Source: Candidatus Latescibacterota bacterium (GTDB lineage: Bacteria; Latescibacterota; UBA2968; GCA-2709665). Taken from it: a DNA stretch of 64,000 nucleotides. Below the pieces are notes generated by a model. It made no database searches. It saw only the letters and a list, made by a program, of their open reading frames with translations, and was not told the origin of the DNA. A program made the position numbers and the translations under genes. Positions 12,168 to 40,201 of this stretch are shown here, one piece after another (within the stretch, counting starts at the first letter, position 1; each line of letters starts with the position of its first letter). Location of the stretch: contig OZ244744.1 in NCBI GenBank assembly GCA_965219455.1, positions 4,128,001-4,192,000 of the forward strand. The letters run 5' to 3'.

Positions 12168-15100
12168 CTAAAAATGTCCTGTCATGTCAATTGAGAAATA
12201 CTGGTGAGGATGGTAGGTCCGTGCGAAATCCGTGGGCCAGGCCAGATCGTATCGGAACAGGAAGTACCCCAGATTCACACGCACGCCGAATCCGTACCCC
12301 GCTGCCATCTGCGGTTTCTCGAATCCGTGTCTGGATTCCCCGCCCCGGAAGTGCTGCGGCACATTGAGCTCAAAGCCGCCGTCGCGGGCGACCCAGCCGT
12401 CTCTCCATTTGGATCTTTCAAAGGCGCCGCCAATGTCCAGGAACAATTCACCCTGGACGTTCTGGAAGAAGAGCGGCAGCGGCCAGCCCATGATCAGTTC
12501 CCGGATGAGGGGAAAACGGAACGCCGCATTGGCCAGCACATACGAATCGCCGGCCAGTTCGAACAATTCCACGCCCCGCAGCGGCCATACAAAACTGGAA
12601 AAGAATATCCGATCCTGGTCCACGTTGGCAAACGTATTGAAATTAGGATTCACGGGATTGTTGACGCCACCTACGAAATAGACTCTCTTGTTGGGGCCGA
12701 AGCTGCTGCCCCCGGAGAGACGAAAGGCAAACGTGTATTCGCCCAGCGCGAGCAGATACTGGCGCAGATCCACATTGAACGCCGCAAAACGCATTCCCGC
12801 CCAACTTCCTTCAATGCCAAGGCGCATCCGGCGTCCGTCCACGGCTCCGAAACGGCTCATCAGCGAGTTGTCGTCCACAAGCGCCAGGTAGGAAACGGCG
12901 GCTCCACGGGAATCGACTTCAGTGCCAGAAAGCCCGCGCAGGTTTCTTCCGGTAAATCCACGTCGTACCCACCGATCGTCGTATCGTTCCCGTTCCAGGC
13001 GTTCGCGGGTAATTCTGATGCCCCGTGTGCCCAGTTCCATCCTGCTGAATCGGCTGAACGGCCGAATCAGGCTTGCTTCGGCGCCGAGATAGCGATCGGC
13101 ATTCAACTGACCGCTGTCGAAGAAGAACAGACGCGTATGGATGGCGCTGAGGTAGTAGTTGGTCTGGTGTTTGAGGTTCTGGTATCCGAGGAAGAGATCG
13201 CTGTCTTTCAGGGAGAAGCTCAACCCTGACTGTATGATGACGCGATGGTCGCCCATCACGTCCGTCAGCGACAACTGGACCAGGCTGCTCACACCGTAGA
13301 AGGTGTCGAAGCCGGCGTTGGCTCCGAAGAATTCCGGTTTGAGTTTCACACGGTATTTGTTCACCGTGAACTCCCTGTTCCAGTCGCGCAGCGTCAGTTC
13401 CCTGTCGCCGTCCGTCTCCAGGGTGTCGGCCCCGGCGCCCTCGTCGTCGTCGCCGCGCGCCTCGGCGGCCGCCAGCGCCATCTGATCCGACATCCACGTC
13501 TCCACCTTCCTGTCCGTCGCCGCCGCCACCACCGTATCCTGTTGTGCGCCGCTGTCCGCGCTGTCGGCCGCCGCGCTTGCCGTCGCCTGCTCCTCCCTGC
13601 GCTCACGCTGCAGTTCCACGAACGGCCGGTCTTCGATACCCGCCAGACGCTTCGCATACCGCGTCAGCGGCAGATCTTCGGTCCCCCGCTTCTTCTTTAG
13701 CGGGTCCTTCATTACGAAGATGTCATAACCGCCCCTGTGAAACGTCGTAAACGCCAGCTTCTTGCCGTCGGCCGACCAGTCGATATACCGCGCCCCCGAC
13801 AACAGATTGCTGATGGGATACACCTGTGAGCCGTCCACGTGCGCGATGTAGATGTTGCCCACGCCCGTCCTGTCCGACACGAACGCCAGCGTCTGCGAGT
13901 CCGGCCCCCACGTGGGATGGCTGTCGTTCACCTCGCTTTCCACCACGCGACGGATCTCCGAACCGTCACGGCGGATCACGAACACGTCATACGTGCCGAA
14001 GACGAAATCCTTCGACCCGTCATACGTCAGGGCCGCCGACGGTCGGTCCGAACTGATGGCGATCCACTCCCCGTCCGGCGACCAGTCCAGGTGCTTCTCG
14101 TCATACGGATCCCGCGTCATGCGCCGCAGCGACTCGTCCTCCACGTTCACGACATACACGTCCGACCACCCGTCCTTCAACCCCACGATCGCGATCTCTT
14201 TCCCGTCGGGCGACCACGTGGGCTCGAACAATCCGTCCAGATCGAACTTGAAGCGCTTCGTCACGCGCCGCTTCCTCACGTCCAGCGTATACAGCGTGTT
14301 CTTGTTACGCGACTTCGCCGCAAACGCGACCTGCTTGCCGTCGGGCGACCACGTGATGCCGGGACGCAGTACGAACAATCCCTCGAAGTCCGACGATCGC
14401 TCGCCCTCCACCAACCGGCCCAGGTCCTGACCGTCGATCGCCGACATCAGATAGATGTCGAACGTGCCCTGACGCTCCGTCACATACGCGATCTTGTCGC
14501 CCTGCGGCGAAAACGACGGCGCGATATTGTAAAAACCACGACCCACAGACGCTTCCGTCAACTGCTTCGCCACCTCCTCCGACACGTGGTGCAGGTTGAT
14601 CTCGTTCCAATACTGACGCTTCAACCACAACTGCCACTTCTCGTCCAGCTCCTCCACACCCTCGCCCACCGATGCCTTCAGCGCCTTGTCCACAGACCGC
14701 GCCGACCGAAACGACGAGATAAACTCCGCCACCTTGTCCTTGCCATACTCCTCTTCGATCATCACGAATACAGACTGACCACCCTTATACGCAAACGCGC
14801 CGCTCAACGCCATCATACCAGGCACATAACCCGTGATCGTCGCGTGACGCATGAAATTGTCGCCCTCACGGTCCCAGCCTCCCTGCGATAAATACTCCGC
14901 CACACCCTCCGCAATCCACAATGGCGGCAACGTCGCCGCCTGCGTCATCATCGCTCCCAGCCACCCGCCGCCCGTCCACATCTCCAATGTCACCACGTGC
15001 GCCAACTCGTGATGTATCACGTGACGGAAATCGCCATAAGATCCCGTATACGGTATCACCACACGACCCTGCGCAAACTCCGTAAATCCGCCCGTAAACT

Positions 15101-15413
15101 CCGACTGCTCCGTCGGCGCGATGTTCGTCACTGAAAAACCGTTGTGCGAGTTGTAGATTACTATCGGATATCGGTCCTTCAAAGTATACTTCAGATCCTT
15201 CTCCAGACGCACCAGCGAGCGCTCCGCCTCCTTCGCCGCAAACTCCGCCGCAGGCTGCGACGCCCTGTCGAAATAGATCTTGAAATGCTCCGTCTCCAGA
15301 TAGTGCCAGTCGTAATCGTCATACGTCACCTTGTTCTTGCCGAAATACTCCTGACCGCCCGCAATACCATACGTGAACAAGGTGATGCCAAATAGAAGGG
15401 ACCACCGGGACAT
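12168..15413 (-). CDS. Gluzincin peptidase-like + PD40/TolB beta-propeller + Omp85 (BamA/TamA-like) barrel fusion
   Basis: AAGGAG RBS, signal peptide, HELAH...WIAEGVAEY, repeated WSPDG, C-terminal barrel with PLRG and GYGFGVRVNLGYFLFRYDLAWP, terminal Phe. Confidence 0.88.
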   Translation of the reverse strand: MSRWSLLFGITLFTYGIAGGQEYFGKNKVTYDDYDWHYLETEHFKIYFDRASQPAAEFAAKEAERSLVRLEKDLKYTLKDRYPIVIYNSHNGFSVTNIAPTEQSEFTGGFTEFAQGRVVIPYTGSYGDFRHVIHHELAHVVTLEMWTGGGWLGAMMTQAATLPPLWIAEGVAEYLSQGGWDREGDNFMRHATITGYVPGMMALSGAFAYKGGQSVFVMIEEEYGKDKVAEFISSFRSARSVDKALKASVGEGVEELDEKWQLWLKRQYWNEINLHHVSEEVAKQLTEASVGRGFYNIAPSFSPQGDKIAYVTERQGTFDIYLMSAIDGQDLGRLVEGERSSDFEGLFVLRPGITWSPDGKQVAFAAKSRNKNTLYTLDVRKRRVTKRFKFDLDGLFEPTWSPDGKEIAIVGLKDGWSDVYVVNVEDESLRRMTRDPYDEKHLDWSPDGEWIAISSDRPSAALTYDGSKDFVFGTYDVFVIRRDGSEIRRVVESEVNDSHPTWGPDSQTLAFVSDRTGVGNIYIAHVDGSQVYPISNLLSGARYIDWSADGKKLAFTTFHRGGYDIFVMKDPLKKKRGTEDLPLTRYAKRLAGIEDRPFVELQRERREEQATASAAADSADSGAQQDTVVAAATDRKVETWMSDQMALAAAEARGDDDEGAGADTLETDGDRELTLRDWNREFTVNKYRVKLKPEFFGANAGFDTFYGVSSLVQLSLTDVMGDHRVIIQSGLSFSLKDSDLFLGYQNLKHQTNYYLSAIHTRLFFFDSGQLNADRYLGAEASLIRPFSRFSRMELGTRGIRITRERLERERYDDRWVRRGFTGRNLRGLSGTEVDSRGAAVSYLALVDDNSLMSRFGAVDGRRMRLGIEGSWAGMRFAAFNVDLRQYLLALGEYTFAFRLSGGSSFGPNKRVYFVGGVNNPVNPNFNTFANVDQDRIFFSSFVWPLRGVELFELAGDSYVLANAAFRFPLIRELIMGWPLPLFFQNVQGELFLDIGGAFERSKWRDGWVARDGGFELNVPQHFRGGESRHGFEKPQMAAGYGFGVRVNLGYFLFRYDLAWPTDFARTYHPHQYFSIDMTGHF

Positions 15414-17779: not shown

Positions 17780-18682
17780 GTGAGCATTTTTGTCGATAGC
17801 GAAACCCGCGTGGTTGTGCAGGCGATTACCGGAAACGAGGGCTCGTTTCACACGCGTCAGATGCTGGACTACGGCACCCGGATCGTAGCCGGCGTCACGC
17901 CGGGTAAGGCCGGCAATCGCGTCGACGGCGTACCGGTTTTCAATACCGTGTCGGACGCGGTCGACGCCACCGGCGCCGACGTTTCGATCGTGTTTGTTCC
18001 GGCCGCGTTTTCGGCGGACGCGATTATTGAAGCGGCAGATGCGGGCCTGGGCCTGGTTGTGTGCATCAGCGAGGGCATCCCGGTCCTGGACATGATAAAA
18101 GTAAAACACTACCTGAGTTGTCGTTCCACCCGGCTCATCGGTCCCAACTGTCCGGGAATCATCGCTCCCGGCAAAAGTAAAATCGGCATCATGCCGGCCG
18201 AGATTCACCGGAGCGGGAACGTCGGCGTCATTTCCCGCAGCGGGACATTGACCTACGAAGCCGTTGCACAACTGACCGCCCTGGGCCTCGGCCAGTCCAC
18301 GTGCGTGGGTATAGGGGGAGACCCAATTATCGGAACCAGCTTTATCGACTGTCTCGAAGCGTTCGAGAAGGATCCGGACACCGAATGCGTTGTCATTATC
18401 GGTGAGATTGGCGGCGCCGCCGAAGAACATGCGGCGCACTATGTAAAGAGTTCCTTCCACAAGCCCGTCGTCGGGTTTATCGCGGGCCAGACGGCGCCTC
18501 CCGGCAGGCGCATGGGTCACGCCGGAGCCATCATTTCCGGCGGGCAGGGCACGGCGGAAGAAAAGGTCGCCGCCCTCGAAGCCGCGGGAATCCGGGTCTG
18601 CAAAAGCCCGGCCGACATCGGCGAAACCGTGCTGGAGGTTCTGGCGGCCGGCCCGGGTCAGACATCCGCTCAATCCGGTTGA
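17780..18682 (+). CDS. sucD: Succinyl-CoA synthetase alpha subunit
   Basis: GTG start 17780 after AAAGGGA; [35 protein letters not shown]. Confidence 0.97.
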
Positions 18683-18779
18683 CTCCAGAATCGGGCGGCA
18701 ACTTGAGGGGGACGGGCGGGGAGCGTTGTGCGCGTTCCGCTTGAATCCTTGGCCGACGAAGATTGCTGGATAAAAAGGG

Positions 18780-18808
18780 TTGACAATTGAGATAATGTTC
18801 TATATCTT
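18780..18808 (+). promoter_or_regulatory. sigma70 promoter upstream of the OMP-TBDR cassette
   Basis: TTGACA-17 nt-TATCTT. Confidence 0.7.
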
Positions 18809-18934
18809 CTCTCGATTAACCTGCTGTATTGCTTGCGAATTCAATATCTAAGCTCAAATGGTTGGTGTATGCTAAATTGCTACCGCGTAGTCGATTATCA
18901 TAAATTCCGTACGCTTGAAACAGAAGTTCCTTTT

Positions 18935-18973
18935 GGGGGCGTTGCCGGTTTGCTGGCAGGTGCGCCCTTTTTT
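18935..18973 (+). terminator. Terminator-like hairpin inside the cassette leader
   Basis: GGGCG-TTGCCGG-tttg-CTGGCAG-gtg-CGCCC followed by TTTTTT. Confidence 0.55.
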
Positions 18974-19089
18974 GTGGTTAAAAGGGGGTGGGAAATCGAG
19001 CAAGCTGCGAGAGTTTTTTTTGGGGCAGACCGTATAAGGATGTGCAGGGAGGCGGGGTCAAGTCATCGTCCAAGTGTAAGGAGGTGTTT

Positions 19090-19788
19090 ATGAAGGTGTT
19101 CAGGGTTGTTGGCCTGTTGATTCTTGTGTTCACGGTTTCAACTTGGCCCGCAGTTGCCCAGGAAGGGAATTGGGGAGTCGGCGTGTTTGCGAATTACAAC
19201 GTGCCGGTCTTCGGTCTGGGAGACTGGTACGACAACGACTCCAAGTTCGGATTGAACGCGGCCTACGTGCTTGCGTCGAACGTTACGGTGGAAATGGAGT
19301 TTCACCATGGTAATTTCAACGACGGGAGCCTGCTGACCCGCACGTTCACCTGGACCGACGGCAACGATTACACCAGCCCGAACGCGGCAAGCAATATGAG
19401 CCTGAACAGTCTGCTGGTGAACGCGCTCGTCCGCCTGCGGCAGATCGGGCAGCCGTTCGCCGCCAGCAGTTTTGCCTCGTACATCGCGGTGGGCGGCGGC
19501 TTTTACCGGTACAAGAACGACGTCAGCGGGTTGTTGTGGCCCGGGCAGACGGGAGATCTGGTCATCGAAATGGATCCGTTCACCGACCAGCGGTTTGCGC
19601 TCGGGATCAACGCCGGTCTGGGTGTCGAGGCGTTCATAATCGATAACGTGGCCGTGGACCTTCGCGCGCGTTACAATATGATGATCGGGGACCTTCGGGG
19701 CCTGGAAGACTGGGAGCTTTCCGAAACGTTCCCCCTGCAGATGCTGGACCTCGGAGCCGGGGTTAAATTCTACTTCAGCGGGAAATAG
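19090..19788 (+). CDS. Small outer-membrane beta-barrel protein (OmpA-TM/OmpW-like)
   Basis: AAGGAGG RBS and ATG 19090; signal peptide; amphipathic strands SYIAVGGGFY, GINAGLGVE, VDLRARY, DLGAGVKFYF. Confidence 0.8.
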   Translation: MKVFRVVGLLILVFTVSTWPAVAQEGNWGVGVFANYNVPVFGLGDWYDNDSKFGLNAAYVLASNVTVEMEFHHGNFNDGSLLTRTFTWTDGNDYTSPNAASNMSLNSLLVNALVRLRQIGQPFAASSFASYIAVGGGFYRYKNDVSGLLWPGQTGDLVIEMDPFTDQRFALGINAGLGVEAFIIDNVAVDLRARYNMMIGDLRGLEDWELSETFPLQMLDLGAGVKFYFSGK

Positions 19789-19818
19789 CCGCGGAATCTT
19801 TTCGAAGGAGGTCTTCAG

Positions 19819-22800
19819 ATGAATCGATGGAAGTTGTTTGTGGCTTTGCCGGTCGCGCTCTTTGTGCTGGTGGGTTTCACCGCCGGCGCATTCGCTGGAA
19901 CTACCGGTAAACTGACCGGACGCGTCATGGATGCGGCGTCCGGCGAGCCGCTGCCGGGCGTGAATGTCGTTATTGAAGGTACGCGCAGGGGCGCCCAGAC
20001 GGATGTGGACGGATTCTATCTTGTCCTCTCGGTCGATCCCGGCAACATCACGCTGGTGGCGTCGATGGTGGGCTACAACGCGGTTTCGCAGACAGACGTG
20101 CTGATACACGCCGACTTCACCTCAACCGTCGATTTCCAGTTGAAAGAGACCGCGCTGGAAGCCGAGGAACTCGTGGTCATCGCGGAGCGCCCGCCGGTGG
20201 AGCCCGACAAGACCACCAGTCATTACGTGATGGGCGCGGAGCAACTCGAGTCGCTTCCCATGGCGCGATCGGTCACGGATCTGGTCGCGTTGAATCCGGG
20301 CGTGAACCTGACCAACGCCACCGTCATCCGCGGCGGCGACTCCAGGGACGGTATCCTGATGGTGGACGGCGTGGTGCTGCCGAACAACGACGGATACGGC
20401 CGGCAGTTCACCGGCGTCTCCAAGACCGCGGTGCAGGAAATCACGGTGATTTCAGGAGGCGCGAGTGCCGAGTACGGCAACCTGGAGTCGGGCGCGGTTT
20501 CGATCATCACGAAGGACGGCGGACGCGACTTCCGCGGCTGGGGCGACTTTCGCTATACGCCCCCGGGGCAGAAGCACTGGGGTTCCAATCTCTACGAAAG
20601 CGCGTATCACCGTGACAGGCTCAAGTGGGACAACAGGGAGTGGCGCGCGGAAACGGTGATCATTAGCGACGGAGACGATGGCGTTCCGGGAACACCCGAC
20701 GACGACGTGGGTCTGGCGCACAACGCCGTGGACTATACCGACGTCAAGGGCTCCTACATCGAGGGCGGCGTTTCTGGCCCGCTGGGCGACCAGGCCAGCT
20801 TCTTCGCGAGCGCCCGGTGGACCCGGCAGCCCACCGACGTGCTGAATACCGCCACTCGGACTGCCACGGTCGACCCGAGCCTTGGCGCCACCAGCCTCAA
20901 CAGCGTGATGTCGGGCGGGTTCCCCACGCTGAGTACTCCGCTGGATTTCCGCGGAAATGTAAAGCTGACGTTCCGCCCGGGCGCCGACGCGAAGGTGAGT
21001 ATCGGGCACATCAACTCCGTTGCGGAAGTTTACAATAGGGCAACGAACACCCAGCGCGACAGGGCTTCAAACGGTCAGAACGTCTTCCTGCCGGAGGGGT
21101 CCGGCGCGGGCGGGCGCAGAATTACCGACCAGGTCACCTATGCGTCGCTGACCCACACGGTATCCCCGAAGACGTTTTACGAAGCCAGGGTGTCGTTCTA
21201 TGCCACAGCGGAAGATACCCAAAATACCAACTGGCCGAAGGACCAGTTCGGGTTCCCCTTAACGGTATTCGGCGAGAAGGACCTCGACGGCTGGTTCAAC
21301 GTGAAGCCCAACTATGTCGCGAACTATACCATCGCGGACCGGACCCGGCTGAACCTCAAGCTGGACGTGTCTTCGCAGGTCACCAAAGGGCACTTCGTCA
21401 AGGCGGGTATGGATCTGACCCGATACAGCATCTACTACCTGAACTACAATGCGCCCAACCCTAGCCAGCGGATCGTCGACTTCATCACCCACTCCGGCAA
21501 TCTGCCCGACGCGAAAGCCCCCATCAATCCCATTCAGATCGGATTCTATCTGCAGGACAAGATGGAGTTCGAGGGCATGGTGATGAACGCGGGTATCCGG
21601 TTCGACGCGCTGTACACGAACCACGATTTCTACAATGTATCGCAGCTTCAAACGCCGCAGAACCGCTGGCTCATCAAGCACGTGGATATGATCACGGTCG
21701 ACCCGCAGTGGGCGACACAGTTCAGCCCGCGTTTCGGGATCTCCCATCCCATCACGCACCGGTCGGCCTTCCACTTTACGGCCGGACTGTACTCGAAGGT
21801 GCCCGACCTGCTGGAGTTCTTCCGCGAACAGTGGCGGGCCAACGGCCCCGACGCTAATGTGGCCTGGGATGCGTTCCGGGGTCTGCACGGGCAGGTCCGG
21901 ATGGCGAACCCCTACGTTTCCCTCACGCGTACCCGGGCTTACGAGGCGGGCGCCGACTGGAACTTCGTGGCCGACTATACGGCGGGTATGGCGGCCTACT
22001 ACAAGAGCGCCCTGGGCAAGATCAACTCCGGAAGCCGGTACTGGTACGAGCCGCAGCGGACAACGTGGGTCTGGGGCCGCAAGCCCAGCGGTTTCCAGGA
22101 CATGAGAGGGTTTGAGCTGCACGTGCGCAAGGGCTTCAGCCACTACTTCTCTTTCAACGCGGCGATCAACTTCGGTTGGGCGTCCTCCGCGCGCGTGGGT
22201 TCCAACGCCACCATGTTCTATCCCGATTCCTCGTATGTGATGAATTCCGATCAGTATCACACCTGGGAGTGGAACGGTTCCTCGTACGCGCGCAAAGACT
22301 ATACGCTGGAAGAGCGGATGGAATTCGCCGGAAGGGCGGCCAGGAACTGGCGGGGCCGCTCCAACGCCATGATCAACGGCTATCAATACGTTGTCTTCGA
22401 GTTCATGGATATCCAGAAGGCCTACGACGCGCCTGCAAATATGAACGGCGTGTGGCAGCCCACCTACGGCGGCGGCCGGCTGTTCAACCCGAAGAGTTCC
22501 GACCTTCGTATCCAGTCGAGTCTCTCGCTGTATCTGGACACGCCCACGGACTTCGGTCCGGGGCTGCGCCAGTTCCACGTGGCGGGCGGCCTGCGCGCGA
22601 ATATGGTCTGGCGTATCCAGAGCGGCCGTCCCCAGTGGTACACGCCGCCTGGCAAGCAGCCGGAGTTGCGCCACAGGCCTATCCGGACCTGGACAGACCT
22701 GCAGGTTGAGAAGACGCTCGTGGAAGGCGGGCACCGGAACGCTATTTTCTACGTCGAGGTGTTCAACCTGTTCAACCAGCAGGACAGCCCGGTAGCCGGT

Positions 22801-22944
22801 TCCTATCCTGACTTCGTGCGGTGGGGTCTGAACGTCCCCAGGCCAAACGACGGGGACTACCTGACGTACGGCGACTACAACGAGTTGACCCGGTACTACG
22901 GAAAGCCGCGCGAGTTTGGCGTGGGTCTGAGAATCAACTTCTGA
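19819..22944 (+). CDS. TonB-dependent receptor with N-terminal carboxypeptidase-regulatory-like domain
   Basis: AGTTGKLTGRVMDAASGEPLPGVNV; plug IRGG...VISGGASAEYGN; YLQDKME, FSPRFGISHPI; VFNLFN...PREFGVGLRINF. Confidence 0.93.
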   Translation: MNRWKLFVALPVALFVLVGFTAGAFAGTTGKLTGRVMDAASGEPLPGVNVVIEGTRRGAQTDVDGFYLVLSVDPGNITLVASMVGYNAVSQTDVLIHADFTSTVDFQLKETALEAEELVVIAERPPVEPDKTTSHYVMGAEQLESLPMARSVTDLVALNPGVNLTNATVIRGGDSRDGILMVDGVVLPNNDGYGRQFTGVSKTAVQEITVISGGASAEYGNLESGAVSIITKDGGRDFRGWGDFRYTPPGQKHWGSNLYESAYHRDRLKWDNREWRAETVIISDGDDGVPGTPDDDVGLAHNAVDYTDVKGSYIEGGVSGPLGDQASFFASARWTRQPTDVLNTATRTATVDPSLGATSLNSVMSGGFPTLSTPLDFRGNVKLTFRPGADAKVSIGHINSVAEVYNRATNTQRDRASNGQNVFLPEGSGAGGRRITDQVTYASLTHTVSPKTFYEARVSFYATAEDTQNTNWPKDQFGFPLTVFGEKDLDGWFNVKPNYVANYTIADRTRLNLKLDVSSQVTKGHFVKAGMDLTRYSIYYLNYNAPNPSQRIVDFITHSGNLPDAKAPINPIQIGFYLQDKMEFEGMVMNAGIRFDALYTNHDFYNVSQLQTPQNRWLIKHVDMITVDPQWATQFSPRFGISHPITHRSAFHFTAGLYSKVPDLLEFFREQWRANGPDANVAWDAFRGLHGQVRMANPYVSLTRTRAYEAGADWNFVADYTAGMAAYYKSALGKINSGSRYWYEPQRTTWVWGRKPSGFQDMRGFELHVRKGFSHYFSFNAAINFGWASSARVGSNATMFYPDSSYVMNSDQYHTWEWNGSSYARKDYTLEERMEFAGRAARNWRGRSNAMINGYQYVVFEFMDIQKAYDAPANMNGVWQPTYGGGRLFNPKSSDLRIQSSLSLYLDTPTDFGPGLRQFHVAGGLRANMVWRIQSGRPQWYTPPGKQPELRHRPIRTWTDLQVEKTLVEGGHRNAIFYVEVFNLFNQQDSPVAGSYPDFVRWGLNVPRPNDGDYLTYGDYNELTRYYGKPREFGVGLRINF

Positions 22945-22960
22945 GTATGGCAAACCATTC

Positions 22961-22991
22961 GGGGGCGGGCGGTTTTTCCCGCCCCCTTTTT
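22961..22991 (+). terminator. Intra-operon terminator/stabiliser hairpin
   Basis: GGGGGCGGG-8 nt-CCCGCCCCC-TTTTT. Confidence 0.7.
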
Positions 22992-23009
22992 AGAAAGGGA
23001 GAAGCAAGT

Positions 23010-25397
23010 ATGAAACCAGGCATCAAGCTTATGGCGCTTGTCTGCGGCTTGCTCCTGCCAGTGGGCGCCTGGGCTGTAGACCAGAGCGACACCCCGAGGC
23101 TGTCGACCAGCCGGGGGCACGTCCAGGTCAGCTGGAACACGGATGGAACCATGGGCGGGTGGAACTTGGGAAGCGGGCAGACGGGCGAGCCGGATATGTT
23201 CTGGTACCCCGGCTGGGCCAACATCCCCGCGAGCAACGCGAGTTCCAACTATACCCGCCGGGGCGGCAACGCCGTTGGTTTCGGCACCTGGATCATGGTG
23301 GTGGGGCCCGGGGGCGTGGATGCGGCATGGACCGGTCCCAGGGGCAAAAGCGTCGGTATCACCCCGCTGGTGTACGATCCGTCCAGCGGGCCCGAGGTGG
23401 GTCTCGGCGCGGCAACGGAGTGGGAGCAGGGGCGTTACGGGGCGTTCTCGCCGTCCAGCAACTACTGGCCGGGCGTGGACGTGCCGGATGAGATGGACAC
23501 CAGCGCGCCGCCCAGACTCATCCATAACTTCTCGCCCGGTGAATACACGCCGGACGATGCGTTTGCCGAAGAGATTCTGATTACCAAGTGGAACAACAGG
23601 TTCGACATCACGATAACCCGGAAGGTCCACAACTGGGCTCACCAGATGTTCGACGATTTTGTCATCGTGGAATACACGCTCGAAAATATCGGCAGCACCC
23701 GTCACAACGAGGTGTACCTGCCGCTGGTGGCCACCTGGAAAGTCAACGAGACGGCGGACAACAACCAGGGCGGCGGCCGCTGGTGGCGGTGGTTGGACCA
23801 ATCTCTCGACGATCACTTTCGCTACACCGAGGCCGGCAACTACGTGGACGGCGGCCCCGGCGGCCCGGTGTCCATCAGCGCGGCCCGCGTGCAGGGTCTC
23901 AAGCTGAGCTATCAGTTCGACGGCGACAGCCCGTTCAGGGCCTGGGAAGACACCGGCGACCCGTGGATCAAGGATATCGAAACCTCCGACCTCAAGGAGA
24001 TGGCCTTCCCCGACGGCAAACTGGCTTCGCATTCCTTTGTGGGCATGGCGCCGATCGCCTTCGCCGACAACGCTGCAGACCCGAGACACTCGTTCAATAT
24101 GCACGATGCCGGTCAGTACGTGCAACCCGAAGGGGACCAGCCGGTCTACCAGGGCTGGTGGAACGTACGCACCACCGCCGACTACGACGAGCCGGTCCTC
24201 GAGGGCGAGACCCCAGCAGAGGCGTTCGCCAAGCTGACCGCAACCTCCGCGCAGGACAACCCCACCGACGTGGGCGGTTTCACGAACGCGCAGGTGTACG
24301 GTCCCTGGGCATTGGGTCCTGGCGAAAAGGCGAAGGTCGTGGTGGCGTACGTGGCCGGCTCCGGCGCGGAGTATGCCGGCCCTGGCAAGTCGCCAATAGA
24401 CATCTGGCAGTGGTCGGTCACGGCCGACAAGGCCAGCTTTTTTCAGGGCGAGCAGGCGATTGTAGAACACCTGGAGCACGCGATATTCGCCTATCAGAGC
24501 GGTTTTGATATCCCGGATGGTCCTCCCGACATCGACGTCTACGCGAAGAGCGACGAAAACGCCAAGGTGAAGCTGTTCTGGGCCGCCGAGGCCCAGGGCG
24601 CCATTCATCCCGACTACGATGCGGCCGACGTGGCCGGATTCCGCGTCTATCGCGGGCTGCGGGGAACGCTCACGGCCACGGGGCCGTTCTCGCTGGTCGC
24701 CGACCTGCCGGTGGGTGGGCCGCTGCCGGCGGGTGTCACGTACGATGCCGGCGCGGATTGGCCGGTAGCTGCAGCCGAGGGCGACGACGTCTCGGCTGGA
24801 AGCCTGGCTATTCAGGCCAGCCAGGGGCGGCGGGCGGGCCGACCGGGAATGTACGGCTGGTCCGACGCGAGTTCCAATGCCGGATTCTTCTATTACTACA
24901 GCGTGCGGGCCTACCAGAAGCCGCATGATGACTGGGTGAACAACGACGGCACCAAGACCTTCGCGGATCTCCCGCCCAGGGCGCAGAAGTTTCTCCAGAA
25001 TGGGCAGGAGGGGCCGTATTCCAACTTCCTCCAGGTGAACCGGGGGTCCCCGCAGTTGCCGTTCGTGGCTGCCGCGGACGCATTGGAACGCGATATCGTG
25101 GTGGTCCCGAACCCGTACATGGCCAACGGCACCAACGAGTACGGCGGCGGTCTGAGTATCCGGTTTGTAAACGTGCCTTCCAACTCGTACATTTATATCT
25201 TCAACACCGCCGGGCAGCTGATCCAGGTATTGCGCCAGAAGGGTAACCGGTCCAGTGAGACCAGGTGGAACGGCCGTCCTTATTCGACCATCCGGGCGAT
25301 TGTCGGCCCGGGAATCTATTTCTATGCCGTGCACGGCGTGGAAGGTTCGGCAGGCGCCGGAAAGATCAAGACCGGCACATTTGTGGTGATCCGTTAA
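23010..25397 (+). CDS. Large secreted protein with Fn3-like module and T9SS type-A-like C-terminal domain
   Basis: ATG 23010 with signal peptide; PDGP...VKLFW...GFRVYR...YYYSVRAY (Fn3-like); C-terminus IVVVPNPY...IRFVNVP...IYIFNTAGQLI...WNG...GIYFYAV...GTFVVIR. Confidence 0.8.
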   Translation: MKPGIKLMALVCGLLLPVGAWAVDQSDTPRLSTSRGHVQVSWNTDGTMGGWNLGSGQTGEPDMFWYPGWANIPASNASSNYTRRGGNAVGFGTWIMVVGPGGVDAAWTGPRGKSVGITPLVYDPSSGPEVGLGAATEWEQGRYGAFSPSSNYWPGVDVPDEMDTSAPPRLIHNFSPGEYTPDDAFAEEILITKWNNRFDITITRKVHNWAHQMFDDFVIVEYTLENIGSTRHNEVYLPLVATWKVNETADNNQGGGRWWRWLDQSLDDHFRYTEAGNYVDGGPGGPVSISAARVQGLKLSYQFDGDSPFRAWEDTGDPWIKDIETSDLKEMAFPDGKLASHSFVGMAPIAFADNAADPRHSFNMHDAGQYVQPEGDQPVYQGWWNVRTTADYDEPVLEGETPAEAFAKLTATSAQDNPTDVGGFTNAQVYGPWALGPGEKAKVVVAYVAGSGAEYAGPGKSPIDIWQWSVTADKASFFQGEQAIVEHLEHAIFAYQSGFDIPDGPPDIDVYAKSDENAKVKLFWAAEAQGAIHPDYDAADVAGFRVYRGLRGTLTATGPFSLVADLPVGGPLPAGVTYDAGADWPVAAAEGDDVSAGSLAIQASQGRRAGRPGMYGWSDASSNAGFFYYYSVRAYQKPHDDWVNNDGTKTFADLPPRAQKFLQNGQEGPYSNFLQVNRGSPQLPFVAAADALERDIVVVPNPYMANGTNEYGGGLSIRFVNVPSNSYIYIFNTAGQLIQVLRQKGNRSSETRWNGRPYSTIRAIVGPGIYFYAVHGVEGSAGAGKIKTGTFVVIR

Positions 25398-25427
25398 CGA
25401 ACCTCTCGACGTTTAAGGAGAATCGCT

Positions 25428-26471
25428 ATGAAAAAAGGATGGATCATCTTGGGGTTGGTCCTCGTGACCGTCGCTCTCCTTTCCGTGAAGCCGGCGCTGG
25501 CCGTTGAGCAGCCGGCGCCCGGAGCCGAGACGCGCAAAGGGGCGTTGATCGATCCGAAGATGGAGAACGTAGACAAGGCCTGGGGTCTGTGGGCCGAACG
25601 GGTTGGGCTTTCGGAATTCCCCTTCCTGAAGATCGGCCAGGGCGCCCGCGCCGAGGCCATGGGCGGGGCTTACACGGCCATTGCGGACGATATCTCGTCC
25701 GCGTTCTGGAACGCCGCGGGTCTGGGGCACATCGAAAACGTGGCCTATACCCTCAATTACACCCGCTGGCTGGCCAATTCATCAGTGGTTTCCGGCGCGC
25801 TGGCCTTCAATGCCGGGTTCGGAATCATCGGGTTTACGTTCACCAGTTTCGCGCCGGAAGAGTTCGAAGTCACCACGCCCACGGCCCCCTGGGGTACCGG
25901 CACGATGGCGCAGGTGGGGGATATTGCCCTTGGCGCTGTTTTTGCCAAAAAGATGACCGATAAATTCATGCTGGGCGGTCAGATCCGCTGGATGCAGGAA
26001 GATCTCTACCTGGAGAAGGTGTCCACGCTCGACTACAGCATCGGCACCCACTTTTACACCGGGTATCGCAGCAGCCGGATTGCCATGAGTTTCCGGAACC
26101 TGGGTCCGAACGTCAAGGCGACGGAGGGCGGTTTCACGGCCGCCATGCCCACCACCTACTCCCTTGGCGGAGCCATGGAGATTTTCGGTCAGAAGGGCGA
26201 TCCCGGATACTTCACGCTTTCGCTCGAGCACGAGTTCGTGACGGACTTCCGGCCGATTACCCGCGTGGGCGGGGAACTCTGGCTGGAAAACACGTTGGCG
26301 CTTCGCGCGGGTTACCGGACGCATACGGCTCTCGAAAGCTGGAGCGTCGGCGCCGGCCTGAAGCACGAACTGGCGGGCGGTCAGCTGATCACCGTGGATC
26401 TCTCCTACCATAACCCGGATCTGGGTATTTTCGATCCTCCGTTGCGTCTGTCCGTGGGCGGGACGTTCTAA
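25428..26471 (+). CDS. PorV/PorQ family outer-membrane barrel
   Basis: FLKIGQGARAEAMGGAYTAIADDISSAFWNAAGL; LALRAGY; ends GGTF. Confidence 0.88.
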   Translation: MKKGWIILGLVLVTVALLSVKPALAVEQPAPGAETRKGALIDPKMENVDKAWGLWAERVGLSEFPFLKIGQGARAEAMGGAYTAIADDISSAFWNAAGLGHIENVAYTLNYTRWLANSSVVSGALAFNAGFGIIGFTFTSFAPEEFEVTTPTAPWGTGTMAQVGDIALGAVFAKKMTDKFMLGGQIRWMQEDLYLEKVSTLDYSIGTHFYTGYRSSRIAMSFRNLGPNVKATEGGFTAAMPTTYSLGGAMEIFGQKGDPGYFTLSLEHEFVTDFRPITRVGGELWLENTLALRAGYRTHTALESWSVGAGLKHELAGGQLITVDLSYHNPDLGIFDPPLRLSVGGTF

Positions 26472-26493
26472 GGGCGTGACGCGCGCTAAACAT

Positions 26494-26530
26494 AAAGGGG
26501 GGCGGTCCCGCGGGATCGTCCTCCTTTCTT
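26494..26530 (+). terminator. Rho-independent terminator closing the cassette
   Basis: AAAGGGGGGCGGTCCC-gc-GGGATCGTCCTCCTTTCTT. Confidence 0.7.
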
Positions 26531-26645
26531 GTTATAGGTGAAACAAAGAAGCACTCAGCAATCAGTTTTCAGCAGTCAGCTTGAATCAAAGACCCAATCA
26601 TTTGACTTCAGCGCCGTGAAGCGGCAGGACCAGAAGGGGGCGCGA

Positions 26646-26669
26646 CGAGGGCAAGATGCCCTCGCTCCC
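26646..26669. repeat. REP-like palindrome (GGGAG class)
   Basis: CGAGGGCAAGATGCCCTCGCTCCC; single copy in the window. Confidence 0.5.
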
Positions 26670-26858
26670 ATCCGAAATCCGTTTCCTGTTTGAATATCGC
26701 GGGAGTCCGTTGCGGACGTCTGGATTTTCTGCAACCAAATACGACTATGGGCATCATAGATGTTACGGGGAGCGGGAACACGGTTTCCGCTGCTGCGCCG
26801 GGGAGACGACGCGTTCGGCCTGACGTATTGATGCCAACCTGAAACGAGGAAGAAAACG

Positions 26859-29261
26859 ATGTACCGGATTCGATCACGGAGGATGGTTCTCGGGCTCGCG
26901 GCATTGACCCTTATTCTGACGGGAGGTCTGCCAGCCCGCGCGCAAGAAGGAACGCCGGAATCGGACGGGGACTCAACCGCTGTCCCTGGCCCCGACTGGG
27001 AGGTGCAGCGCGCCGTGCGGGTGTACTGGCCGCAATTGGCGGGGGATCCGGCCGGCCACAATACCCGGATCGGATACGCCCGGTTGCTGAAAGCGGATTT
27101 GTCCGGCGCCAGGGAGGCGTTCCAGTCGGCCCTTTCGCAGAACGACGGATTTGCGCCAGCCCACTTCGGCATGGCGCTGGCATCCTATCGGTCGGGGACG
27201 GCGGAGGGAGAAAAAGGAAGGTTTTCCGAGCAGACGATCTACCATGCGTCCCAGGCGGCCGCGCTTTCGCCAGAGTTCGAATTGGCCCACCGGCTTCTGG
27301 GGCGGCTTTATTCCGATATCGAGGACTATGACAAGTCGGTGGATGCCTATGTGCGCTCTCTATCGGTGGAGCCGACGCGGGCGCCCGCGGTGCTCCAGGC
27401 CGTGGTCACAGCCTATATTCGGACGGGCGTTTTAGAGGACTTACCCTCGCAGACGCTGGATTCACTCGAGGTAACGAAGGACGAGGGGTTGTTGTTGCCC
27501 GTGGTCGCGCAGGCATGCGCGAGCCGAAAGGCCCTGGATCTGGCTATGCAGTACTACGGCCGGGGGTTTTCCAGGATGCCGCCCGAGGAACGCCGGTTGT
27601 ACCAGGACGTGAACCTGATCGCCTCCCGGGAGGAGCTTGTCGCCTATCGGGCGACCGCGGATGATCCGGCGGCGCGGCGAGAGTTTCTGGTGAGGTTCTG
27701 GTCGGTGAGGGACCCGGACCTGATGACGGCCGTGAACGAGCGCAAGCTGGAGCACTATCGCCGGGTGTGGTATTCCAGGACCGGATTCTCGGAAAGGGCG
27801 CACCCCTGGGACCGGCGGGGCGAGGTCTATATCCGGTACGGTACTCCGGATTTTCGGTCGACTTCGAGCAGTATGGCGCCGCCAATGCCGGTTTCCGTGG
27901 AGCGGATCAAGGAGCGTGTCGCCCACGATATCTACGGACCCCTGGGTATGGCGGAGGTGGGACGGGGACCGGTGTTCCCGATTCGCAGGATGCACGAGGT
28001 GGGCCTGGATTTCCCCGCCGAAATGCCGCCGGGATCCGACCAGGGCGAAGCGCCGGACCCCCTGGAGGTTGAGGAGGGGGCGCCCGCGCTGATCGACGAT
28101 CCGCTCGCACCGCCCGATATGTCGGCTCTGAATAGCGAAAACTATGAGGTGACCCTGTCCCCGAACCGCACGCAGGCGGCCGGTGGGGACTTCATGTCCT
28201 TCATAAGATGGGAGTCATGGGTGTATACCGGCGTTGCCGGGGGGATCGAAGTTGTGTTTACCAACGAATGGGGGGGCGGGAAGTTCGACTTTGCGCCCGT
28301 GCCCGCGGCGGCATTCGACGACGGCGCGTTGCGGCGCACCAGCCGGATGGTGAAGTACTCTCCCGCGATGGTGATGAACCGGAGCATCCGGCAAATGCCC
28401 GAGCACTATCTGCCCGGCGGCCGGGAGGCATTTCTGGATTTTTTCTACGATCGGGCGACGTTTCGAGGATCCAATGGAAAGACGCGCGTGGAGGTTTATT
28501 ACGGAATTCCACCCCGAAGTCTGCGCGAGACTGAATCTGAAGAGCAGCCCGTGTTCCAGTTGGGCTGCGCGGTGGCCCTGTTCGATACGGAAACCGGACA
28601 TACACTGCTGGACAGCGAAGAACTGGTATTGCGTACGTCGAAGGAACTCTATACGGGGAAAGGAACCTTTATTCCGAATCAGCTTGCGCTGGACGCGAGC
28701 CCGGGCACGTACGAAATGCGGGTACAGGTCAAGGACCTGCTTTCAGGCCATTCGGGCATCTACAAGGAAAGGCTCGAAGTCGAGGATTATTCCCTGGATA
28801 CGTTGAAGCTGAGCGGACTGGAACTGGGGTTTCAGGTATCTACGGAGGGCGGCCTGGAGAAATACGACAAGGGCGGCGGCGTCTGGGTGATTCCGATGAC
28901 AACCAAGACCTATCGGATGAACCAGCATCCGTTTGTATATTACGAAGCCTACGGGTTGAAGCCGGACGCGTTCGGTCAGAGCCGGTTTACGTTGCATTAT
29001 ACAATCCACTCGATGCCGGAGAAGGGCGGTACGTTCGGACGTCTCTGGGCGGGCGCGGGCGCTCTCTTCCGCAGGGGCGAACGAAACCCCGAGGTTTCGG
29101 TATCCACGGAGCAGGTGCGGGAGGAAGTGGATCTCCAGGAGTATTTCGAGATGGATCTCGGGAATGCCAAATCCGGTGTAAACCGGTTGACGGTGCGCGT
29201 TGTGGATCAGAACGGCAACGCGGAGGCGGAGAAGGAGGTCTTGTTCCGGCTGGAGCGGTAG
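26859..29261 (+). CDS. TPR + GWxTD-domain exported protein
   Basis: Signal peptide, TPRs, FWSVRDPD...NERKLEHYRRVWYS...PWDRRGEVYIRYG; C-terminal LKLSGLEL / VYYEAYGL sandwich. Confidence 0.85.
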   Translation: MYRIRSRRMVLGLAALTLILTGGLPARAQEGTPESDGDSTAVPGPDWEVQRAVRVYWPQLAGDPAGHNTRIGYARLLKADLSGAREAFQSALSQNDGFAPAHFGMALASYRSGTAEGEKGRFSEQTIYHASQAAALSPEFELAHRLLGRLYSDIEDYDKSVDAYVRSLSVEPTRAPAVLQAVVTAYIRTGVLEDLPSQTLDSLEVTKDEGLLLPVVAQACASRKALDLAMQYYGRGFSRMPPEERRLYQDVNLIASREELVAYRATADDPAARREFLVRFWSVRDPDLMTAVNERKLEHYRRVWYSRTGFSERAHPWDRRGEVYIRYGTPDFRSTSSSMAPPMPVSVERIKERVAHDIYGPLGMAEVGRGPVFPIRRMHEVGLDFPAEMPPGSDQGEAPDPLEVEEGAPALIDDPLAPPDMSALNSENYEVTLSPNRTQAAGGDFMSFIRWESWVYTGVAGGIEVVFTNEWGGGKFDFAPVPAAAFDDGALRRTSRMVKYSPAMVMNRSIRQMPEHYLPGGREAFLDFFYDRATFRGSNGKTRVEVYYGIPPRSLRETESEEQPVFQLGCAVALFDTETGHTLLDSEELVLRTSKELYTGKGTFIPNQLALDASPGTYEMRVQVKDLLSGHSGIYKERLEVEDYSLDTLKLSGLELGFQVSTEGGLEKYDKGGGVWVIPMTTKTYRMNQHPFVYYEAYGLKPDAFGQSRFTLHYTIHSMPEKGGTFGRLWAGAGALFRRGERNPEVSVSTEQVREEVDLQEYFEMDLGNAKSGVNRLTVRVVDQNGNAEAEKEVLFRLER

Positions 29262-32519: not shown

Positions 32520-32682
32520 ACAGGTCGTGTTCGGGTAGGTGGAGATGACACCCTGTCGGTCGGCGTTGCTGGGGCTGGCTGCAAGTCTTATATTTGTGGT
32601 GAGCTGGTTCTGGCGAGCGGGGATGGACCCCGGGATGGCGTGTTCGCCCACGTGGGAACGTAAAAACGGAAGGAAGCGCGTT

Positions 32683-34650
32683 GTGGCCCAGGCGTCAGAG
32701 GTTGTCCCGACCACAGACTCCGTGTCGCAGATTGACCGGCAGGGGGTAACGCTACGCAGCGTTTTTTTGGCCGGTGGATTGGCGGTCGGGGTGAACCTCG
32801 TGGTGAACTACGTGGAGTACGTTGTCCATGCGTCGCGATTGACGTTGAGTCATTTTCCAATGGGTACTCTGTTGCTCTACCTCCTGCTTGCCCTGGGGCT
32901 GAATCCGCTGTGCCGGTTACTCGCGCGTCGATATGCTTTATCGTCAACAGAACTGCTGGTTGTGCTGGCGGGAGGTCTCGTCGGAGGCGCCATTCCTTCG
33001 GTGGGTCTCACGGGGTATTTTCTGGGGGCGATCGCCGCCCCGTTTTATTTTGCGACGCCGGAGAATCAGTGGGGAGAGTTCTTCCATCCCTATATTCCGC
33101 ACTGGCTGGCCCCCAGAAACACAAACGGCACGCTGAATCACCTGTTCGAAGGATTGCCGCCCGGCGGCTCGATTCCCTGGAGCGTCTGGTTCGTGCCGGT
33201 TGTCTGCTGGATGGGGTTGATTGCTGCACTTTTTTTTGGTTCCGTCTGCCTCGCGGTGATTCTGCGCAAGCAGTGGGTGGAAAGCGAACGCCTGTCTTTT
33301 CCGATTCTGCGACCGGTCACGGAGTTAACGGAACGTACGGAGACGTCGGATTTCCCCAGGCTTTTCTGGATTGGTTTTGCAGTCGCGTTCGGCATTCTGG
33401 CCTGGAATATGATCAACTACTTCGTTCCCGGCTTTCCGCAGATTCCGAATATCCGATGGGGTCCATGGATCAGGTTCGAACGGTATTTTCCGGGTCTGTG
33501 GACGCGGATCAATATGTTTACCATTTCCTTCTGTTATTTTGCCAATATCGACGCTCTGTTCAGCCTCTGGTTTTTCGATCTGTTGTTCATCATTCGCAGT
33601 GGAATTCTGAACCGGCTGGGATACAATGCCAGTTCGTGGTCCCATGCCTCGGGTGATTACCAATGGCTTCCTCTGGGCGCGTTTTTCGCGATGGTGGGAT
33701 GGGGATTCTGGACGTCGCGGAACCACCTGAGGCTGGTTTTCATGAAGGCATTTGGGAGATCCGCCCCGCTGGATGAGAAGGATGAGATGATGTCTTTCAG
33801 GACGGCGGTGTTCGGGCTGATTGTGAGCCTGTTGTTCGCCGTTTTCTGGTGGTGGCAGGCGGGGATGAGTCTTGGCCCTGCATGTGCCTTCGTTCCGGCC
33901 GCGTTCATCCTCTATGTAGGCGTTTCGCGCATCGTATCCGACCTGGGGCTGGTGTTCATCAGCATGCCGGTCGGGCCGCAACGGTTTGTCACGTCGTTGT
34001 TCGGATCGCGGAATCTGTCTGGATCCAGCCTTACCACGCTGGCATTCACGAACGGCATCGCGTCCTACGGGAAGGGTTTGTTCATGCCGTCGGTAATCCA
34101 CGGCACTAAATTGGCGGATGTTTGCCCCCGAGACGGGCGGCGGCGTGTGCTGGCTGCTCTACTGCTGGCCTTCGGTTTGGGGTGTATATTCTCGGTTGTG
34201 TTTACGTTGTATTTGGGATATACGTACGGGGCCTATAATTTCAACGATTGGCCGTTCACGAGGTACAGCAAATCCGGTTTTGGACGTGTGCTGACCCAGA
34301 TGAACAACCCGGAGCCGCCCCATCGTTTGCAGCTGAGCCTGTTTGGTATCGGTGCGGCGGTGATGTCGTTGTTGACGTTTCTGAAGTACCGGTTTCCGTG
34401 GTGGCCATTCCACCCCGTTGGATTCGCGCTGGCCGGTACGGGGACGTCCGTGCGGTATACCGTGTTTTCGGTCTTTCTGGCCTGGGCTATCAAGTTTCTG
34501 ATATTGCGAATCGGCGGGGCGGCGCTCTACCGCCGTTACGTGCCTTTTTTCCTGGGTGTGCTCGTGGGCTATTCCATGGGCGTGGGTGTTTCGCTGATTG
34601 TGGATATGATCTGGTTTCCGGGTGGCGGGCATTCGATCCACGGGTATTGA
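32683..34650 (+). CDS. DUF6785/DUF6784-type multi-pass membrane protein (putative transporter)
   Basis: GTG 32683 after GGAAGGAAG; PFYFATPENQW, RKQWVESERLSFP, WWPFHPVGF, YRRYVPFFLG; many TM helices. Confidence 0.75.
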   Translation: MAQASEVVPTTDSVSQIDRQGVTLRSVFLAGGLAVGVNLVVNYVEYVVHASRLTLSHFPMGTLLLYLLLALGLNPLCRLLARRYALSSTELLVVLAGGLVGGAIPSVGLTGYFLGAIAAPFYFATPENQWGEFFHPYIPHWLAPRNTNGTLNHLFEGLPPGGSIPWSVWFVPVVCWMGLIAALFFGSVCLAVILRKQWVESERLSFPILRPVTELTERTETSDFPRLFWIGFAVAFGILAWNMINYFVPGFPQIPNIRWGPWIRFERYFPGLWTRINMFTISFCYFANIDALFSLWFFDLLFIIRSGILNRLGYNASSWSHASGDYQWLPLGAFFAMVGWGFWTSRNHLRLVFMKAFGRSAPLDEKDEMMSFRTAVFGLIVSLLFAVFWWWQAGMSLGPACAFVPAAFILYVGVSRIVSDLGLVFISMPVGPQRFVTSLFGSRNLSGSSLTTLAFTNGIASYGKGLFMPSVIHGTKLADVCPRDGRRRVLAALLLAFGLGCIFSVVFTLYLGYTYGAYNFNDWPFTRYSKSGFGRVLTQMNNPEPPHRLQLSLFGIGAAVMSLLTFLKYRFPWWPFHPVGFALAGTGTSVRYTVFSVFLAWAIKFLILRIGGAALYRRYVPFFLGVLVGYSMGVGVSLIVDMIWFPGGGHSIHGY

Positions 34651-40160: not shown

Positions 40161-40201
40161 CTAATGTTCGGGAGAGAACGCCGGTGAAGGAGAATTCGCA
40201 C

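Follow-up and report, generated by a model that had tools for sequence, protein, structure and literature searches.

We analysed a window of 64,000 nucleotides from a Candidatus Latescibacterota bacterium (OZ244744.1, positions 4,128,001 to 4,192,000); coordinates below are positions in this window. It contains a cassette of four co-oriented genes on the + strand, tightly spaced and each with a signal-peptide-like N-terminus. They encode a small outer-membrane protein (OMP; 19090-19788), a TonB-dependent transporter (TBDT; 19819-22944), a partner protein of 795 aa (23010-25397, stop codon included) and an outer-membrane barrel of the PorV/PorQ family (25428-26471). The partner ends in a domain resembling the C-terminal sorting domains (CTDs) of type IX secretion systems (T9SS). 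An earlier note on this DNA had described four co-oriented exported genes here, and the gene calls, the signal-peptide-like N-termini and the domain matches confirm that description. The capture of polymers by TBDTs of the Fibrobacterota-Chlorobiota-Bacteroidota (FCB) group outside Bacteroidota is largely unknown, and the cassette provides a concrete architecture. We propose, with about an even chance of being right, that the cassette is one copy of a Latescibacterota outer-membrane capture and uptake module in which the CTD-bearing partner is held on its own PorV barrel beside the TBDT.

The order of the genes is strongly conserved. A scan with one genome per species gave 167 sites encoding relatives of the 795-aa protein. 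Locus counts in this report refer to the best 80 of these 167, nearly all of which are in Latescibacterota metagenome-assembled genomes (MAGs), and gene order across the 80 was read from tblastn searches with the proteins of the window. In 80/80 loci the gene directly 3' of the 795-aa gene is the PorV-family one. The TBDT gene lies directly 5' of it in 78, the two misses being contig ends, and the small OMP gene is 5' of the TBDT gene in 73, with four misses at contig ends and three undetected. The median intergenic gaps are 21 nt (OMP-TBDT), 65.5 nt (TBDT-partner) and 16 nt (partner-PorV). The order is kept in these relatives, nearly all Latescibacterota, in a survey of the neighbourhood of the kind that the earlier note had suggested. 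This order is beyond chance, and the cassette is a conserved, repeatedly duplicated unit. A locus in OZ250150.1 is 96% identical. Conflicting phylum labels occur among the MAG records: three loci labelled Gemmatimonadota (L004, L005 and L007) and three labelled Latescibacterota (L002, L003 and L012) are about 90% identical to the window.

Most of the 80 loci are paralogues, with 795-aa protein identities of 29-37%, and the gene order holds among paralogues with identities as low as about 30-45%. Among these loci, one chromosome (OZ244960.1) carries at least eight cassettes and others carry 6, 6, 5, 4 and 4. The distance matrices of the four proteins, computed for 18 representatives, are correlated with r = 0.56-0.78, and in none of 2000 permutations did any pair come up to its observed correlation. 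The highest correlation of the six pairs is that of the TBDT with the partner (r = 0.78). These correlated distances indicate that whole cassettes duplicate and diverge together; the correlation itself does not show binding. Two paralogous cassettes stand back to back on one contig (L017 and L021), where they are divergent and their small-OMP genes face each other's promoters.

As a whole, the 795-aa protein matches nothing in Pfam or NCBIfam, and no catalytic family or motif was detected in it, in agreement with its earlier description as a protein of no recognisable catalytic family. Residues 1-696 (23010-25097, + strand) comprise the signal peptide, a variable N-terminal region, a sandwich core, a helical segment and an Fn3-like domain. 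In an AlphaFold2 model built on 17 sequences (pLDDT 74, pTM 0.79), the N-terminal region is poorly defined and is followed by a beta-sandwich core at about residues 169-450, a short helical segment, the Fn3-like domain at about 506-640 and strands at 697-793. The N-terminal region is also the most variable among the paralogues, with a mean identity of 29.5% vs 40-45% in the other regions. Because a lipobox-like string is present in only 1 of 78 partner proteins, we regard these proteins as non-lipoproteins, as the note had supposed, and lipoprotein anchoring was rejected. No SusD-type family was reported by the Pfam scan of 39 window open reading frames (ORFs), which agrees with the absence of a SusD-like lipoprotein noted before.

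A word-indexed search with the 795-aa protein returned 20 relatives, the best being annotated 'hypothetical protein, Candidatus Latescibacteria', and a second search of this kind with a wider alignment returned one protein more. The family profile, compared with 1.84 billion representatives, matched 3718 at E ≤ 1e-3; tightening the threshold to 1e-10 and to 1e-30 left 1164 and 95. Pfam, applied to 28 of the 150 relatives listed, reported nothing beyond sub-threshold FlgD_ig, CHU_C, Por_Secre_tail and fn3, with one relative of 1262 aa carrying Ig-like domains. Against PDB sequences, the family profile gave a single chance match (E 0.52). Among structures, PorZ (5m11) was matched by the 795-aa model with a Foldseek probability of 0.63 and a query-normalised TM-score (TMq) of 0.11, and can be taken as a lead only.

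The CTD occupies residues 697-795 (25098-25397, + strand) and runs to the stop codon. DSSP assigned it seven strands between residues 697 and 793 of the AlphaFold2 model, and we read the fold as a predicted sandwich. T9SS CTDs typically carry PNP and GxY motifs. The alignment of the domain shows conserved VVPNPF, IRF and GxYFYVV motifs and a terminal G.F..I[KR], and the last residue is R or K in 78/78 partner proteins; the motifs VVPNP, GIYFY and GTFVVIR quoted in the earlier note are present and conserved. A profile of the domain, run on 7945 ORFs of the window and the 80 loci, gave 82 matches, and all 82 are cassette partner proteins. This confinement fits a cognate pair of CTD and barrel. 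Against PDB sequences, the CTD profile had no match at E ≤ 10.

The barrel encoded immediately downstream (347 aa, + strand) matches the PorV/PorQ family model NF033709 with 150 bits vs a cut-off of 90, and 25 of 25 cassette barrels match this model at E ≤ 1e-5. Assignment to PorV or PorQ proper was rejected (NF033710, 57.8 bits vs 250; NF033711, 58.9 vs 220). We modelled the complex of barrel residues 26-347 with residues 680-795 of the partner. The score was 0.87 in three runs, whereas the best of three controls scored 0.00. Of 157 solved complexes 116 attained the mark used for this score, as did 2 of 215 mismatched pairs; the figures apply roughly here, because own alignments were used. 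The runs had at least 82% of contacts in common, the partner pLDDT was at least 77, and the conserved CTD motifs lay at the interface. The model supports the recognition of the CTD by the PorV-type barrel. The earlier note had proposed a PorV dedicated to the CTD protein, and both the invariable adjacency of the two genes and the interface predicted by the complex model speak for this.

A second PorV/PorQ-family gene lies elsewhere in the window (8773-9720; NF033709 113 bits vs the cut-off of 90, PorV2 model 95 vs 325). This gene overlaps the stop of a family-less ORF and has an upstream ORF in which an L,D-transpeptidase-like motif was seen by eye. No CTD protein adjoins it.

A CTD protein with a cognate barrel could also be an adhesin with its anchor, which serves attachment or motility in the manner of SprB and SprF and is merely embedded in transporter operons. 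The 795-aa family was clustered at 75% identity into 24 clusters, whose representatives were used for the domain scans. At E ≤ 0.01, the type B model CHU_C was matched by 11 of the 24 representatives (best E 5.3e-7), Por_Secre_tail (PF18962) by two and FlgD_ig by one, and by sequence the CTD appears at least as type B-like as type A-like. The earlier note had referred to type A CTDs, and an assignment to type A is not supported here. According to the available text of two papers, shuttle genes show genetic linkage to their cognate substrates (PMC12618676), and PorP-like barrels serve as anchors for CTD proteins of type B (PMC9143113); the barrel gene directly downstream of the CTD gene recalls this arrangement of type B substrates, and the Fn3-like domain of the partner would also suit an adhesin. 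However, the barrel is of the PorV/PorQ family, and no PorP/SprF family was among those reported by the Pfam and NCBIfam scans. The 795-aa protein is compact, as its pTM indicates, unlike a long repetitive adhesin. This explanation would also leave open why a TBDT and a small OMP are so strictly linked to the pair, and we consider it very improbable.

The two genes at the 5' end of the cassette encode recognisable outer-membrane components. The small OMP (232 aa, + strand, with a signal peptide) is a beta-barrel that matches PF13505 with 34 bits vs a cut-off of 28.7. The TBDT (1041 aa, + strand) consists, in this order, of a signal peptide, a CarboxypepD_reg-like domain, a TonB-box-like EELVVIA, a plug and a barrel region of about 800 aa. 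The N-terminal domain matches CarbopepD_reg_2 (PF13715) with 72 bits and PF13620 with 63.6 bits. The plug (PF07715, residues 132-227) scores 39.7 bits vs a cut-off of 23.9, and five paralogues match as well. The TonB-box-like string EELVVIAERP at about residues 115-124 was spotted by eye, and E117, V120, E123, R124 and P125 are nearly invariant in the alignment. The barrel region (801 aa) had no Pfam family at E ≤ 1. An AlphaFold2 model based on 22 paralogues (pLDDT 75, pTM 0.72) has a plug-in-barrel with the 22-strand TBDT fold, and Foldseek against the PDB placed PhuR, PirA, Cir, PfeA and FusA at the top, with E from 2e-24 to 1e-22 and target-normalised TM-scores (TMt) of 0.60-0.75; among the TBDT matches as a whole, TMt went up to 0.78. 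This protein is a TonB transporter with a SusC/Oar-style N-terminal domain, outside the SusC family.

The genes around the cassettes add to this picture. A polytopic membrane protein with DUF6785 (381 bits) and DUF6784 (82 bits) is encoded at 32539-34650 on the + strand; hydropathy gives it 14 hydrophobic segments, of which two overlap. Homologues occur in 61 of the 80 loci, representing 16 of the 24 clusters. For 60 of these 61 loci the best match lies 3' of the PorV gene in the same orientation, often within 25-800 nt; the exception is L045, where it stands upstream and on the other strand. The DUF6785/6784 protein, from a so far uncharacterised family, is a likely candidate for the inner-membrane permease of the system. 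Between this gene and the cassette, the window encodes a protein of 800 aa with a GWxTD domain and tetratricopeptide repeats (TPR) (26859-29261, + strand; TIGR04514 50 bits vs a cut-off of 28). GWxTD-like matches were found in 42 of the 80 loci, and in 30 of the 80 they are co-oriented and start at most 3 kb downstream of the PorV gene. A second protein of the GWxTD-domain and TPR type is encoded at 35977-39786 of the window. With DUF6785/DUF6784 and GWxTD proteins travelling with it, the cassette cannot be called self-contained, as it had been in the earlier note.

The more distant flanks vary. In the flanks of 12 paralogous loci we found sulfatases, PhyH dioxygenases, GFO/IDH/MocA oxidoreductases and xylose-isomerase-like, GH4, M20 and S15 proteins, together with regulators of the GntR, LacI and sigma-54 types. 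Downstream of the cassette, the window encodes DegT and class III aminotransferases, a gamma-glutamyltransferase (GGT), an enzyme resembling the formylglycine-generating enzyme (FGE), a sulfatase and two heparinase II/III-like proteins. Variable catabolic and regulator genes around a constant cassette follow the logic of a substrate-utilisation locus, as in polysaccharide utilisation loci (PULs). The earlier idea of a PUL analogue gains from this variability, from the multiple copies and co-divergence of the parts and from the permease-like gene in 61/80 loci.

Part of the downstream region forms a large catabolic island (40184-61607). It holds the FGE-like enzyme, an NHL protein, the sulfatase, an S15 peptidase, several oxidoreductases and the two heparinase II/III-like proteins, as well as a PhyH protein, an amidohydrolase and an M20 peptidase, and its content suggests the use of sulfated polymers. 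Two other places in the window deserve mention. On the - strand at 12168-15413, a protein of 1081 aa joins a peptidase MA-like domain with beta-propeller repeats of the TolB/PD40 kind and, at its C-terminus, an Omp85-like segment, which is an unusual fusion. At 62459-63822, also on the - strand, a SmaI-like endonuclease adjoins a DNA methylase as a restriction-modification pair, with local G+C down to 0.53.

The transporter might act in export instead of import. It could secrete a protein, as Oar does for PopC, or it could be a T9SS-independent translocon for the CTD protein, with the PorV barrel as shuttle or anchor. The resemblance to Oar of Myxococcus xanthus lies in the CarboxypepD_reg N-terminal domain (here PF13620, 63.6 bits) before the plug and in a barrel of at least about 1000 aa. 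The cassette barrel also stands outside the Pfam barrel families, and no sequence family links it with that of Oar, which sets the two apart. We know of no CTD-PorV partner for Oar. No recognisable T9SS core gene was found in the window and the 80 loci, where the largest ORF has 2002 aa; SprA measures at least about 2,300 aa. The protein with the FGE domain (40184-41341) was considered as a GldK and rejected (62 bits vs a cut-off of 350). We also found no paper that ties Latescibacteria to the T9SS, and the available text of one paper reports a role of Oar in PopC secretion in Myxococcus (PMC6434023). On the other hand, the co-oriented permease-like gene and the catabolic enzymes around the cassettes fit import. 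The barrel model is an ordinary plug with a 22-strand TBDT fold, and up to eight paralogues on a chromosome, beside metabolic genes that vary, are what is seen with nutrient transporters. Export is thus an improbable function of the cassette.

Several features of the DNA bear on the expression of the cassette. A promoter-like site (TTGACA, 17 nt, TATCTT) at 18780-18808 on the + strand matches 10 of 12 positions, and in a 12-row upstream alignment the 10 rows of close orthologues preserve both hexamers. Promoter-like sites in the region numbered 5 vs 3.7 +/- 1.8 in shuffles, which is no excess. The promoter claimed before has in its favour its match and its conservation in close orthologues, and gains nothing from the site count. 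The site is followed by a 5' leader of about 280 nt (18809-19089, + strand) with a conserved 24-nt box at about 18868-18892 and a terminator-like hairpin at 18935-18967, which runs into a U-run at 18968-18973. The hairpin and U-run are kept in 10/10 orthologous leaders with changed stem bases, and this makes an attenuator likely. From its sequence, the leader may be a putative attenuator or riboswitch-like element, possibly an undescribed one. An Rfam scan of 18600-27000 at E ≤ 1 returned a chance SgrS match alone (15.6 bits vs a gathering score of 37).

Two further hairpins lie within and after the cassette. The 65-nt spacer between the TBDT and partner genes (-24.5 kcal/mol) contains a G+C-rich hairpin with 9 G-C pairs and a T-run (22961-22991, + strand). 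Orthologues keep a hairpin with a different stem sequence, and 6 of 21 folded spacers of paralogue representatives are 14-29 nt long and have no hairpin. The hairpin could set the ratio of TBDT to partner or stabilise the upstream mRNA. After the PorV-family gene, a terminator-like hairpin of 15 pairs, 8 of them G-C, is followed by a weak T-run (26494-26527, + strand). The earlier statement that one terminal terminator closes the cassette is wrong, given the stronger hairpin between the TBDT and 795-aa genes and the conserved terminator-like hairpin in the leader. The richness in C-ending codons described in the same place holds numerically. The four genes have a fraction of C at third codon positions (C3) of 0.41-0.45 and of G+C (GC3) of 0.78-0.82, compared with 0.26-0.36 and 0.69-0.76 in the next six genes downstream; C3 is at least 0.40 also in SucD, an S15 peptidase and two other window genes. 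Expression of the cassette is probably high, and the codon use is compatible with this.

The spacer hairpin and the fold of the partner raise another explanation, in which the genes are co-regulated and their products physically uncoupled. The 795-aa protein would then be an enzyme or adhesin, secreted or anchored by a T9SS-type route, that acts on an external polymer, and the TBDT would import the products alone. In Foldseek, the partner model weakly matches Fn3 receptors, a polysaccharide lyase and the non-catalytic sandwich domains found in enzymes of the GH94, GH116 and GH65 types, and the resemblance of the sandwich core to the non-catalytic domains of glycoside phosphorylases, GH116 and the lyase would suit such an enzyme. 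The hairpin and T-run would permit a different dosage of the two proteins. There is a precedent in Flavobacterium johnsoniae, whose chitin utilisation locus employs the T9SS according to the available text of PMC5127042. However, there is one partner gene per TBDT in 78/78 loci in which the upstream region is present, and among the six pairs the distances of TBDT and partner are the most strongly correlated. The scans of the partner detected no catalytic family or motif, and a private PorV-family barrel points to a lasting tether, not to release. We therefore regard uncoupled products as unlikely, while giving them more weight than export or adhesion.

The module that we propose, with the partner anchored beside its transporter, would work as follows. 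The 795-aa protein would be exported by Sec and then by a T9SS-type route. It would retain its CTD, through which the cognate PorV-family barrel would anchor it non-covalently at the cell surface. There, beside the TBDT, it would capture and present the substrate and possibly process it, in a role resembling, by analogy, that of SusD or a surface glycan-binding protein (SGBP). The TBDT would take in the captured substrate using TonB energy, and the DUF6785/6784 protein would move it over the inner membrane. Expression may be tuned by the leader attenuator and the TBDT-partner hairpin. Paralogous cassettes would serve different substrates; in the window, the neighbouring sulfatase, FGE-like, heparinase II/III-like, aminotransferase and GGT genes would point to sulfated or amino-sugar-rich polymers.

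A number of observations weigh against this proposal. The CTD of the window protein (last 116 aa) reaches 19.8 bits (E 5.6e-4) on the type A model TIGR04183, below its cut-off of 23, and 20.5-20.7 bits on the type B model CHU_C (PF13585), below its cut-off of 27. Solved PorV-cargo assemblies exist, and the complex score of 0.87 may thus reflect likeness to these rather than binding by the pair itself. The structural matches of the 795-aa model are weak and partial (TMq at most 0.26), its look-alikes in the ESM Atlas are unnamed clusters, commonest in Gemmatimonadota and Ignavibacteriota, and residues 25-505 had no usable match among the named clusters of that atlas. The strong hairpin between the TBDT and partner genes could uncouple the expression of both. 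The DUF6785 gene of the window lies about 6 kb from the cassette, behind three other genes. We found no paper on Latescibacter with T9SS or type IX secretion. Finally, the receptor is not of the SusC type with which the earlier note had compared it. Membership in the SusC/RagA family was rejected (TIGR04056, 59.6 bits vs a cut-off of 368.25, with model positions 2-206 alone aligned), and in Foldseek against the PDB the SusC chains (TMt 0.46-0.50) rank below the classical TBDTs. Since the TBDT is un-SusC-like by both the hidden Markov model and the fold ranking, the analogy with a SusCD lid is functional only.

Within that limit, the cassette shares several features with the SusC/SusD systems, of which RagA/RagB is one. 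It has a large TBDT with a carboxypeptidase-regulatory-like N-terminal domain, encoded in tandem with one surface-partner gene, the surface site being predicted here. As in SusC/SusD PULs, there are many paralogous copies per genome with variable catabolic and regulator flanks. Unlike SusC, the cassette TBDT fails the SusC model and does not have SusC as its nearest fold, and unlike SusD, a TPR lipoprotein, its partner is beta-rich, family-less and without a lipobox. Further components of the cassette are a barrel of the PorV family and a small OMP, usually with a DUF6785/6784 protein as well.

The pair of CTD and barrel has other relatives. In PorZ-PorQ, in PorU-PorV and in type B CTDs on PorP/SprF-like barrels, a C-terminal signal domain meets a cognate barrel, as it would here, where the barrel gene is directly downstream and the docking is modelled. 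PorA, PorU and PorZ retain their CTD, according to the available text of PMC11285876. In contrast to the T9SS attachment pairs, the cassette barrel cannot be assigned to PorV proper or to PorQ proper, and the window CTD is sub-threshold for both types. The pair also stands within a TonB-transporter operon, occurs at least eightfold in one chromosome and is found outside Bacteroidota.

In the literature, we found no paper describing the cassette, including among the papers listed under the topic of PorV with a TonB-dependent receptor; subscription journals and bioRxiv supplements were outside the search. No paper was found on Latescibacter with SusD and TonB, and none mentioning DUF6785, DUF6784 or GWxTD.

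In the cassette, parts of known kinds appear to be put together in a new way for the capture of nutrients. If the proposal is true, a secretion-signal domain and a PorV-type barrel of its own take the place of a lipid tail in anchoring the partner of a TBDT, and the PorV family, known for shuttles, would also supply permanent anchors for the uptake of nutrients. A bolder version, which we advance tentatively and think doubtful as it stands, would give PorV-family barrels a second role beyond secretion, as private anchors for TBDT partners in a four-protein machine working with DUF6785/6784, the phylum-level and lipoprotein-free equivalent of the SusCD utilisome. The proposal would also supply the first functional context for the 795-aa family and for its DUF6785/6784 and GWxTD neighbours, all of them orphan families. 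For Latescibacterota, a widespread, uncultured and sulfatase-rich phylum, the cassette would be a genomic marker of substrate-utilisation loci, in the way that the susC/susD pair is one.

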